Below are positions 30,001 through 33,000 of a DNA stretch of 37,884 nucleotides, one piece after another (positions within the stretch are counted from its first letter, which is position 1; every line of letters begins with the position of its first letter). The stretch comes from a virus. The position numbers were made by a program. The stretch is from the UHGV virus genome UHGV-2203451; one strand, given 5' to 3'.

Positions 30001-33000
30001 GTGTTGCCTGTTTTGCTAACTCACGCAGTGCCTGATAGTCAATCTTGCTCACTGGTTGCCTCCTTTGCGAAGCTCAGCGGCGAAGGCTACTGCGTGATCA
30101 TGATGTTCAAGTGTGTATGCACACTCCGCAAACATCTCCACGCCCTGCGCTCGTACTTCAGCCAGAAAAGCATCGGTGGCTTGGGTGTCAACACGGATGC
30201 TGTCACGCAAGATGAAAAATGCATTGAGCATTCCAGTCTCTGGAACTTCATCCTGATACTTCTCATACGCATCAAGAGCCTTCATCATCTCATGTCCGAA
30301 TGGTTGAGGTTGCACATACTTCAGCCCCGCATTCTCCACTGCCAGCGCCGAAAACTTATCGTGTGCCAACTTAACAGCTGCATCAGCCTGCTTAATTGAC
30401 TCAATCGCTTTCTGTTGGTCTTCGGCCAGCGCATTAGCACGCACCAGTTGCACTTCCAGTTGCGTTGCCAAATCGCTGATCAGCTTTGCCACACTACGCA
30501 TATCAACGGCACCACATTCTGCTTTCAGTTCCGAAGCCATCTCATGCCCGGCGGCAACTAACCCTTTGATATTACTTTCCATCTTTACCCTCGCTTATCC
30601 ACATAACTTATTGATTACATTGATAACTAAAAAGATCGTCGATTCAGAACTTTTCGATGTTCCAGCCACCACCTGCTTTCTTTGGTTTAACCGTTACCCC
30701 GATGATTCGGAACGGATACTGATCTGCGGCGACTTTGGTTTTCACCCTGGCGTCGTCGGTCCAGAAACCTTTCACTTCGTGCAGTTCCATCTCGCCGGTG
30801 GCGAGCATCACAGCAAAATCGGGCGTATAGAACGTGTTGTCAGCTAACCGCAGCTTGATACCCTCAAATCGATACCAGACGATTTCTCCTGCACGTTTAC
30901 GCAGCTCAAGGTGCTGGCAATACGCAGATTCTGTTTTGTTCATCTGACCTGTTTTGAGTCGACCAAGAGCCTGTATCTGTTTTCTCATGATTTACCTCTG
31001 AGGTAATTAAAAACCACATAAGACACGAAATCAATAGATTTTAGAATATTTTATTACCTAACAGGTAATTGTCGAGGCGTAAAAAAATGCGCTATCGCGC
31101 TGGTATTACTTGATAAATCCTGCCGCCTTTCCCCGCCTGTATTCCTCCATCAGCCACTGCGCCGGTGTTATTCCCCCAAGGGTGGCGGCGTTAGGCATGC
31201 ACCCGAAACTTCGCCCTGGTGGATGGTAAACGTCTCTCCCTGTGTCCGGAGGTGTACTCATGGGTTCTGGCTTTGCCTGTATGCTGATCACCGGATCGGG
31301 TATCTGCTGTCCGGAAGCCACCTTTTTCGCCCAATCATCGAGCAGCCTGCGCGCGTGTTTCTCAACCTCAATCTCGCTAAGCTGGCGCTGATACATTGCA
31401 CGGCGGGTATCACATACGACCCAGTACATAACCGGATGTCGCCACGGGAATCTTTCGGGACCACCAGGATATAAACTTTTTTCCTTGCTGTACCGGTGAA
31501 ACTCCGCCATCACATCGTCAATGGTGACGCCAAGAACCATCTTGCTGTCTTTGCACCACTTGATAAATTGCCCTGGAGACGGCCAGAACGGAGATTCACT
31601 GGCGCGGGCGTGGCGCATACCAGCAGAAACCTGTTCACGGGTTCGGATCCCCCCTTCGGCAAACGCAGCAATCCACTGCTGTTTTGCAGCAACTTCCTGC
31701 TCTGGCGTCTTCAGGTTGGTTACCACTGCCGCCGGAAACAGTTGTTTCAGCTGTTTAAAAAGGGCATCAACAAGCCTCTCTGCTGACATGTTCACCACAT
31801 TGTCATTGTTGACGTACTGATGCTCATAACCTGACATGCGAGAAAGGGCTTCTCCGTCACGGTTTTGTATCGCGGTAAAAACGTTGTTCACAAGAAATCC
31901 TCCCATGCTTCAGGGCTGTTCCAGTGCGGAACGTTGTTATCAGGTAATGTTGATTGCTTCTGTCTGCTAATCTGCAGCCGCCTTGCCAGCTTCTGCTCCC
32001 ACTGTGCCTGATGGTATGCCTTACCCTCAGCCATCCAGTAAATTCTGAACTCTGCAAGTTCCTGTGCCGTTGGCAGACTGTCCAGGTAGATCCCCTGCAA
32101 TGAGCTTTTCCGAAGAAAGTCATCTGATGGCTGCCATTGTTCATGCATGACAAATTTGCCTAATTGCCCTGGCCCACCAGGAGGAACAAAGTTATTCATC
32201 ACGGCGTTGTTTGCGCCGGGGTCATGAGGCACAGAATCCCCGCTTTTTGTCCTGCTCTCCCTCTCTTGGTTAAATGACTGGTTATATGACTGGTTCTGGA
32301 TCCCGTTTTTGGGATCATTCAACATCCCGTTTTTGGGATCATTCAACATCCCGTTTTTGGGTATATTCCCGTTTTCGGTAACATTACCGTTTTCGGGTTC
32401 ATTACCCCCCTCCCGGTTGCCTTTAATGTTCCCGTTTTTGGTTATATTAAGAGAGAAAACCCGTACTCTTTTCGTCGCCCCCTTTCTCTCTCCGGTATCT
32501 GAAATAAGCCCCATTTTCATGAGCGATATAAGCCCGGCCTGCACGGTTTTTTTATTCAGGCAAGTGTCTTTAACGAGGCGTTCTATGCTGGGGTAGCAGA
32601 GGTTATATTCATCGGCTCTGTCAGCCATCGAGAGCAGTATGAGCTTTAATGACGAGCTACCTGGATCTGTCTCCCAGGCCCAATCTGTTGCATGTCTGCT
32701 CATGATTAATCTCCGCTATCAGCTTGAATGTTGTGGGGAGGAATTAATCATGATCTGCTTAATCTCTGCCCTGATGCGACGGTTTGATTCCATGGTGCAC
32801 TCAACACAGTGTCCGTTGTAAACCCAGCGTTCACTGTCATGTCCGTGCTTACATGTTTTTCCGGTGTAGTAGCGTTTAAGTCCGCGCTTTGCGGCATCAA
32901 TACGTGTAATGATTTCCATGGTAAGCCCTGTTATTAGTATTGGGATTACGGTCATTTTGTGCTGACACAAAAAAAAGATCAACCAGATTTGGTTTTTTAT

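Follow-up and report, generated by a model that had tools for sequence, protein, structure and literature searches.

A probably Rep-controlled promoter-operator cassette in the gap between the P-like and DUF1064 genes of Uetakevirus genome UHGV-2203451

What is the role of the two palindromes in the 117-bp gap behind the P-like replication gene of virus genome UHGV-2203451, and are they read as DNA or as RNA? The stretch analysed, 37,884 nucleotides long and called the window in the following, represents a phiV10/epsilon15-type temperate podophage of the genus Uetakevirus with ~97-98% identity to Escherichia phage phiV10 and its relatives over shared regions. On its minus strand, genes follow each other in the order Cro-like p41, p42, DnaT-like initiator, lambda-P homolog, gap, DUF1064 gene, accessory genes up to p55, and terS. 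The gap (30989-31105) corresponds exactly to the interval from the stop codon of the P-like gene to the ATG of the DUF1064 gene. An initial annotation had placed an internal promoter flanked by two operator-like sites in this gap, and had proposed that the downstream genes are controlled both at transcription, by an operator, and at translation, by a hairpin containing the Shine-Dalgarno (SD) sequence. Judged from sequence comparison, the gap is probably one of several promoter-operator cassettes of the SPC32H/epsilon15-type immunity system, i.e., an internal early promoter that is repressed by the phage repressor Rep and situated behind a weak terminator.

Both palindromes, ATTACCTgttAGGTAAT and TTACCTcagAGGTAA, are present with perfect arms. 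Their centres at 31061 and 30999 are 62 bp apart, and a repeat search reported them as a 17-nt direct repeat at the same distance. The distal palindrome, ATTACCTGTTAGGTAAT (31053-31069), has perfect 7-bp arms and includes the core TTACC-N5-GGTAA at 31054-31068, the proximal one, TTACCTCAGAGGTAA (30992-31006), has perfect 6-bp arms. Read on the minus strand, the complete gap is TAA(stop) TACCA GCGCgataGCGC ATTTTTTT ACGCCTCGACA ATTACCTgttAGGTAAT AAAATATTCTAAAATCTA TTGATT tcgtgtcttatgtggtt TTTAAT-TACCTcagAGGTAA ATC ATG. The hexamers of the promoter candidate, termed P2 here, were found between the palindromes and on the minus strand as initially annotated, with the -35 hexamer TTGATT at 31029-31034, the -10-like hexamer TTTAAT at 31006-31011, and a 17-nt spacer in between. 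The last T of TTTAAT is the first base of the proximal palindrome, which thus overlaps the -10/+1 region of P2 (predicted start near 30999, ~7 nt behind the -10 hexamer), and the distal palindrome is positioned at about -62 relative to this start. The SD sequence GAGG of the DUF1064 gene (30998-30995, minus strand), 6 nt upstream of the ATG at 30988-30986, is indeed part of the proximal palindrome. It lies there due to the compactness of the cassette, since the free centre of the operator and the GG of its right half-site together spell GAGG or GGGG.

The two palindromes are members of a family spread over the genome. When up to 2 mismatches are allowed, the motif TTACCTNNNAGGTAA yields 17 matches in the window, where 0.87 are expected, and the core TTACC-N5-GGTAA (TTACCNNNNNGGTAA) with up to 1 mismatch yields 14 matches, where 0.85 are expected; 17 and 14 matches, respectively, were reached in 0 out of 100 shuffles. 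On a gene map transferred from phiV10, 14 out of 14 core sites fall into the non-coding 8.3% of the window, each with a gene start no more than 133 bp downstream (binomial 7e-16). Besides the two sites in the gap (30992 and 31054), two pairs of sites flank rep (33337 and 33385; 34097 and 34159), of which the first pair (33337-33351 and 33385-33399) is located in the divergent rep/cro-like control region (33301-33454). A single site follows the Cro-like gene (33000), two directly precede terS (27231 and 27249), one precedes the head-gene block (24038), and one is situated in the divergent region between the tail-fibre gene and the antirepressor gene ant (4247). The remaining sites (5572, 5697, and 6743) occupy other short non-coding gaps near a Bro-N gene and two unnamed open reading frames (ORFs).

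In the RefSeq record of epsilon15 (NC_004775.2), features of the type "protein_bind, repressor" are given at seven places, all of which read ATTACC-N5-GGTAAT. The feature at 35906-35922 is located in the equivalent gap, matches window positions 31053-31069 column for column and shows the same offset from the downstream ATG. The proximal palindrome adjoins the ATG, in each case unannotated, in epsilon15 (35969), SPN1S (36058), and phiV10 (35132). Both gap sites carry the 17-bp ATTACC-N5-GGTAAT motif (complete in the distal ATTACCTGTTAGGTAAT, the core in the proximal TTACCTCAGAGGTAA), the window encodes the cognate Rep and Ant, and the positions are equivalent. These observations support the view that the gap palindromes are operator sites of the Uetakevirus (epsilon15/SPC32H-type) Rep family, and the operator part of the initial annotation is borne out by membership in the family, the repressor-binding features of epsilon15 and the matching Rep. 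The epsilon15 genome paper reportedly proposed the 17-bp repeat as operator, in line with the RefSeq features, and a literature text search for the motif string returned nothing relevant. As a separate observation, epsilon15 contains sites at 33341, 33358, and 33388 in the rep/gp39 divergent region and at 35969 whose core match equals that of the annotated sites, yet they bear no "repressor" feature.

The presumed operator-binding protein is Rep (194 aa; 33455-34039, plus strand), which is 100% identical to p40 of phiV10 and matches the SPC32H repressor (PDB 5D50_A) with E=4e-42. From the epsilon15 annotation, the clustering of sites around rep and secondary descriptions of Rep, we infer that Rep is the protein bound at the operators. 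In the secondary literature, Rep forms tetramers and binds palindromic DNA (PMC9638917), and according to one secondary source a single Rep tetramer is enough for repression. Its tetramerisation fold, termed "TetDloop", is also that of Rco and p53, and the repression mechanism of Rep is said not to be extensively characterised (PMC9986798). In the near-identical phage ZX5, overexpression of the repressor lowered endolysin and holin transcripts by >99.9%; four promoters were predicted for this phage, operators not being given (PMC9782041). Between phiV10-type and epsilon15-type Rep the overall identity is only 42%, the DNA-binding N-terminal region, however, is well conserved, which fits the operator core common to both types. 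All full-length relatives of Rep that were found, from six genera and with 41-75% identity, retain this core motif, and in prophages of Superficieibacter, Erwinia, Klebsiella, Citrobacter, and Scandinavium with full-length Rep, TTACC-N5-GGTAA is the most frequent palindrome. More distant matches comprise the N-terminal domain only, come without a recognisable repeated palindrome and are uninformative on covariation of repressor and operator.

Binding mainly by another phage regulator, e.g., the Cro-like p41 or the "transcriptional regulator" p55, has to be weighed at this point. In lambdoid phages, Cro shares the operators of the repressor, and some sites of the window precede late genes such as terS and those of the head, at which an activator might operate. 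We nevertheless consider such a binder improbable, given that the sites are closely grouped on either side of rep, that half-site centres 10 bp apart suit a helix-turn-helix (HTH) pair, that the epsilon15 record assigns the sites to the repressor, and that late transcripts are silenced by repressor overexpression in a near-identical phage (PMC9782041). Furthermore, sharing of the sites with a Cro-like protein would complement rather than exclude binding of Rep.

The induction arm of the presumed Rep system (4247-4595, plus strand) is divergent from the tail-fibre gene and consists of the operator at 4247-4261, a perfect LexA box, CTGTATAAATATACAG, at 4301-4316 upstream of ant, and ant itself (4338-4595, plus strand). 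Its product of 85 aa matches the antirepressor Ant in PDB 5D50_E with E=4.1e-47. Due to the presence of Rep and Ant homologs together with the LexA box, a complete Rep/Ant/LexA switch appears to be encoded.

Conservation of the cassette was followed among relatives by a scan of IMG/VR for TTACC-N5-GGTAAATCATG, which gave 120 loci and, together with other loci, 99 distinct versions of the gap. This search pattern required a proximal operator adjoining ATCATG, and close relatives make up most of the 99 variants. In 99/99 variants, the T-run, the two operators and the ATG keep one register, the operators always being 62 bp apart. Conserved are the half-sites, AAAAT, CTATTGA, TGTGG, and the -10 region; variation is seen at the centres of the operators, in the segment that precedes the distal one, and in much of the spacer between the promoter hexamers. 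In 99/99 variants, the TTGA of P2 is separated from the distal operator by precisely 19 nt, amid a varying spacer, and GAGG or GGGG occupies the SD position in nearly all of them. GCGC-N4-GCGC-A-T7 is present in 97 of the 99 distinct relatives; its stem is invariant, so that there is no covariation to score. Upstream of the cassette, a P-like gene was observed at 84 loci, a DnaT-like gene at 24 and another gene at 1, and downstream of it a DUF1064 gene at 91 loci and a RuvC-like resolvase gene at 18. The cassette is thus kept despite differing flanking genes. The operator pairs of both loci recur, spaced at 61-63 bp, in six further genera of enterobacteria.

Since the proximal palindrome includes the SD sequence, action at the RNA level, as SD-sequestering hairpins, RNase III sites or antitermination signals, could be considered as well. 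In addition, the distal and proximal palindromes are able to pair in a read-through RNA (141-nt fold of -28 kcal/mol, z = -1.96). Taken individually, the hairpins are weak. For the proximal palindrome an RNA fold of -4.6 kcal/mol (z = -0.99) was calculated, whose minimum-energy structure differs from the palindromic hairpin, and the centroid hairpin amounts to -2.6 kcal/mol; the distal hairpin reaches -5.5 kcal/mol. For the variable stem positions of the 99 variants, the observed pairing equals the expectation for independent columns (0.74 vs 0.74, 0.99 vs 0.99, and 0.48 vs 0.51, respectively), and no covariation was seen in the stem of the SD hairpin across these variants. The proximal palindrome is therefore neither a stable hairpin nor one kept by compensatory changes, as an SD-sequestering structure would be. 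Moreover, a transcript from P2 would lack the 5' arm, because the predicted start near 30999 falls inside the proximal palindrome. It is the sequence of the half-sites that is conserved, not merely their pairing, and the motif is also present in divergent regions and before genes of either strand. A scan of the gap against Rfam returned no family at threshold; a sub-threshold snoRNA match (24 bits vs a gathering score of 39) was taken as chance. Hence, a function as RNA is very improbable, and the translational half of the initial proposal is not supported.

The question of which promoter the operators serve is best approached via a second cassette. Downstream of rep, a PL-like cassette (34060-34195, plus strand) has the same layout as the gap cassette: a strong terminator (34060-34079, -16.6 kcal/mol) is followed by a distal operator (34097-34111), 19 nt, TTGACA (34131-34136), a 17-nt spacer, and AATTAT (34154-34159), the last T of which begins the proximal operator (34159-34173), and then by the SD sequence and the ATG of p39 at 34193. 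In this phage as well as in epsilon15, both cassettes align without gaps, and the four half-sites, CTATTGA, and the junction of -10 region and proximal operator are common to both. TTGATT of the gap cassette aligns with TTGACA, and the position of TTTAAT is taken by AATTAT in the PL-like cassette. Due to this gap-free alignment, P2 can be regarded as homologous by position to an early promoter that is close to consensus. What resembled a third type of cassette, TTGATG-18-AAAAAT, is the reverse-strand reading of the PL-like cassette. As a difference between the two types, a T(G/A)TGG motif just upstream of the -10 region in the P2 spacer (31012-31020) is present in all gap cassettes and absent from PL-like cassettes; it could represent a -15-type element or a site for another factor.

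P2 (TTGATT-17-TTTAAT) agrees with the consensus at 9/12 positions and has a 17-bp spacer, its -10 hexamer matching at 5/6 with T at -11. A consensus promoter scan did not list P2, because the second position of the -10 hexamer is T and not A. In the epsilon15-like class, this place is taken by TAAATT with an 18-bp spacer, and A at -11 as well as T at -7 are present in 31/31 variants. The best consensus match in the gap is given by a different candidate on the minus strand, P1 (31048-31075), which consists of TCGACA (31075-31070), a 16-nt spacer formed by the distal operator, and TAAAAT (31053-31048) and was matched by the scan at 10/12 positions. If P1 were the active promoter, transcription would start near 31041 under the control of Rep, the proximal operator would act as a downstream roadblock at ~+42, and the complete proximal palindrome would be part of the 53-nt leader. 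P1 has A at -11 and T at -7, and its -10-like [T/C]AAAAT is conserved in 92/99 variants with respect to A2 and T6. The mean number of -35 matches of P1 is 3.35 in the phiV10 class, to which the window belongs and which is devoid of a canonical P2 -10 hexamer, vs 2.52 in the epsilon15-like class. The early-right (PR-like) region likewise harbours an operator within a promoter spacer. On the other side, the -35 hexamer of P1 occurs in >30 versions among relatives, its 16-bp spacer is sub-optimal, and the PL-like cassette is without an equivalent of P1, whereas the P2 elements align exactly. Considering this homology we favour P2, and activity of P1 seems rather unlikely but has a real chance in this phage. 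With P2 as promoter, the A/T-rich segment 31053-31035 could be an UP-like element instead of having a role in P1. Since either promoter would be covered by a Rep operator, the main conclusion is independent of this choice.

Further candidates in the gap were dismissed. The hexamers of a plus-strand promoter, AAGACA-16-TAGAAT, are not conserved in the epsilon15-like class, and a near match to an integration host factor (IHF) site between the operators, AATCAATAGATTT, overlaps the -35 hexamer and is lost in the same class, as judged by eye. A 42-aa ORF with TTG start (30906-31034) begins within the -35 hexamer and overlaps the DUF1064 start; we regard it as spurious.

Upstream of the promoter candidates, a terminator-like element (31081-31100, minus strand) is composed of a 4-bp GC stem with tetraloop, GCGCgataGCGC (31100-31089), an A, and T7 (31087-31081). 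The RNA fold of this GCGC/GCGC hairpin amounts to -7.4 kcal/mol (z = -2.3), compared to -16.6 kcal/mol for the terminator after rep. In the phiV10 record, hairpin and T-run are labelled as putative rho-independent terminator. A terminator scan with a 5-pair stem criterion did not call the element, because its stem of 4 bp falls below this criterion.

Several points weigh against a repressed internal promoter behind this terminator. The "repressor" features of epsilon15 are reportedly bioinformatic predictions themselves. In the -10 hexamer of P2, TTTAAT, a T is found at -11, where A is almost universal, and a shifted hexamer with A at -11 and T at -7 exists in 0/68 variants of the class of the window (phiV10 class). 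The -35 hexamer of P1 varies almost freely. The constancy of the cassette is partly built in, since the search pattern fixed the proximal operator next to ATCATG. Finally, with a terminator stem of 4 bp and -7.4 kcal/mol, read-through alone might express the downstream genes. The last point leads to a reading in which no functional promoter exists in the gap, operators and weak terminator form a repressor-dependent block or insulator, and lytic expression depends on read-through from the early-right promoter. The -10 hexamer of P2 without A at -11 is in line with it, the weak terminator makes read-through plausible, and promoter-like sites in the region number 2 vs a shuffle mean of 1.3. Contrary to this, TTGA is invariant at a fixed offset amid varying neighbours, the gap cassette is exactly co-linear with a PL-like cassette that bears a near-consensus promoter, and all other operators of the family are located just upstream of gene starts, as is typical of promoter-associated sites. 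A gap without promoter is thus unlikely, slightly more so than activity of P1. Of the internal promoter initially annotated, the invariant TTGA and the co-linear arrangement stand, the -10 hexamer without A at -11 and the better score of P1 make its exact assignment less certain. The elements of the gap, their place in the operator family, their conservation and the co-linear PL-like arrangement were read from sequence; that a promoter in the gap fires, which of the two this is, and how efficient the terminator would be, we infer.

According to the preferred reading of a Rep-repressed cassette, transcription from the early-right promoter through the replication genes would meet the weak intrinsic terminator (GCGC hairpin and U7), and a sigma-70-type promoter in the gap would re-start or boost transcription of the accessory genes from DUF1064 to p55. 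In the lysogen, Rep as a tetrameric HTH protein would occupy both 17-bp palindromes and block initiation, the proximal operator covering the -10/+1 region of P2 and the distal one, ~62 bp upstream, also filling the spacer of P1. The unit from DUF1064 to p55 would thereby be off, and the weak terminator after P would limit leakage from upstream. Upon DNA damage, LexA cleavage would allow Ant to be made, Ant would disassemble the Rep tetramer, and the gap cassette would be derepressed at the same time as the other Rep operators of the genome, about a dozen in number.

Owing to the terminator-like hairpin upstream and a terminator before terS, the genes from DUF1064 to p55 look like an insulated unit, which its operators would put under the control of the repressor; the separately regulated unit of the initial annotation is in agreement with this. 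The early-right region as a whole appears to be cut into three putative units, p41, p42-DnaT-P, and DUF1064 to p55. The latter two are each preceded by a terminator and one or more operators, and a further terminator together with two operators is found before terS. After p41 (32920-33069), a strong terminator (33048-33029), a single operator (33014-33000), and TTGATC-17-CAAAAT split the early-right operon ahead of p42 and of the genes for replication. At terS, the phiV10-type start (TTG 27309) encloses a terminator, GCCGCCaactatGGCGGC, followed by a T-run, as well as two neighbouring operators of the Rep type (27263-27249 and 27245-27231). The terS start of epsilon15 has its counterpart in the ATG at 27228, which immediately follows the second of these operators. 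For these reasons the longer annotated start of terS appears to be wrong.

The genes adjoining the gap have close counterparts in phiV10. The P homolog (31106-31906, minus strand; PF06992, E=1.5e-56) is 99.6% identical to phiV10 p44; its ORF opens at 31906, the likely start of the phiV10/RefSeq type is 31891, and the stop codon occupies 31108-31106. The DnaT-like initiator gene (31888-32703, minus strand) is situated upstream of it. The DUF1064 protein, product of the first gene downstream of the gap (30644-30988, minus strand; Pfam PF06356, E=2.9e-7), is 96.5% identical to phiV10 p45. Several E. coli chromosomes contain a 100% identical copy of the 181 bp from 30960 to 31140, which include the gap, and 529 out of 5426 complete E. 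coli genomes match this segment at 90% or more. The gap of E. coli 4/1-1 is 100% identical to that of the window.

As to the remainder of the window, positions 1-339 (minus strand) lie inside an integrase gene with an Arm DNA-binding N-terminus, next to which a hexapeptide acyltransferase gene is located (869-1540), and the end of the window (37690-37884) lies within p32. The phiV10-type lysis cassette (p27-p30) was not found by tblastn between integrase and tail fibre. In a variable region around the Bro-N gene, ORFs of 203, 151, 210, and 283 aa (4620-5571 and 6817-8590) are without Pfam match or phiV10 counterpart. Two of them, the 151-aa and the 210-aa ORF, have a Rep-type operator just upstream, at 5572 and 6743, respectively.

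If the reading of the gap as a Rep-repressed cassette is true, the early-right operon of epsilon15/phiV10-type phages would not be one antiterminated transcript as in lambda. It would instead be divided into terminator-insulated units with their own operator-controlled promoters, all of which are switched on by Ant at once. Roughly a tenth of the complete E. coli genomes carry such prophages. The operators would mark the starts of transcription units, correct at least one gene start (terS), and help to predict which accessory genes are silent in lysogens. Furthermore, the fixed operator pair at 62 bp bears on how the structurally unusual Rep tetramer engages DNA.

In comparison with known systems, the layout of the gap is ordinary for epsilon15/phiV10-type phages, as epsilon15 already carries an annotation of the equivalent site and the family has been studied structurally in SPC32H. 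Epsilon15 belongs to the same genus and shares with the window both the motif and its placement: sites precede terS as well as the head genes, follow rep, and are also found in the divergent region of ant and tail fibre and in the gap behind the replication genes. Its record differs in that only the distal site is given in the gap, proximal site and promoter being unannotated, and its gap is flanked by a DnaT-like gene and a RuvC-like resolvase gene instead of P and DUF1064. With the Rep/Ant/LexA switch of SPC32H (PDB 5D50 and 5D4Z; PMC9638917 and PMC9986798), the window shares homologs of Rep and Ant and the LexA box before ant; in the secondary literature on SPC32H Rep, no description of 62-bp operator pairs or of an internal cassette was found.

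Similar to PL/OL and PR/OR of lambda, presumed repressor operators of the window overlap candidate early promoters, and a terminator-like element is situated after P and before nin-type accessory genes. In lambda, however, tR2 is passed by N antitermination without a repressor-controlled promoter, whereas the cassette of the window appears to be re-started by its own promoter. Lambda has three adjacent operators, the cassette has two at a distance of 62 bp. The repressor families differ as well, and induction proceeds by RecA-mediated cleavage in lambda as opposed to an antirepressor in the system of the window. A further likeness exists to the C1 operators of P1 and the "stoperators" bound by gp71 of mycobacteriophage L5, which comprise a dozen or more dispersed, asymmetric sites. 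In these systems, and presumably in the window, one repressor has many scattered sites in short intergenic regions and silences units directly. The L5 stoperators are orientation-dependent elongation blocks inside operons. In contrast to such asymmetric sites, which are oriented with transcription and located within operons, the sites of the window are symmetric palindromes at promoters and gene starts.

The spacing of the operators finally relates the cassette to tetrameric looping repressors such as LacI, GalR, and Rco, since ~62 bp, i.e., about six helical turns, would suit a loop-forming tetramer. A spacing of 61-63 bp is kept at two co-linear cassettes per genome in at least 7 enterobacterial genera. 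The fixed distance and the fold shared with Rco suggest bridging by one Rep tetramer. It is tempting to speculate that one Rep tetramer with two trans-formed DNA-binding modules ~100 Angstrom apart clamps both operators and holds the promoter in a micro-loop of ~60 bp, and that every terminator-insulated unit is silenced directly by Rep without an antitermination or activator cascade, although we advance this only tentatively. No account of such an arrangement was found in the literature consulted. Looping by Rep would then resemble that of Rco of pLS20, whose operators are 75 bp apart and whose tetramerisation fold is common with Rep (PMC9986798).

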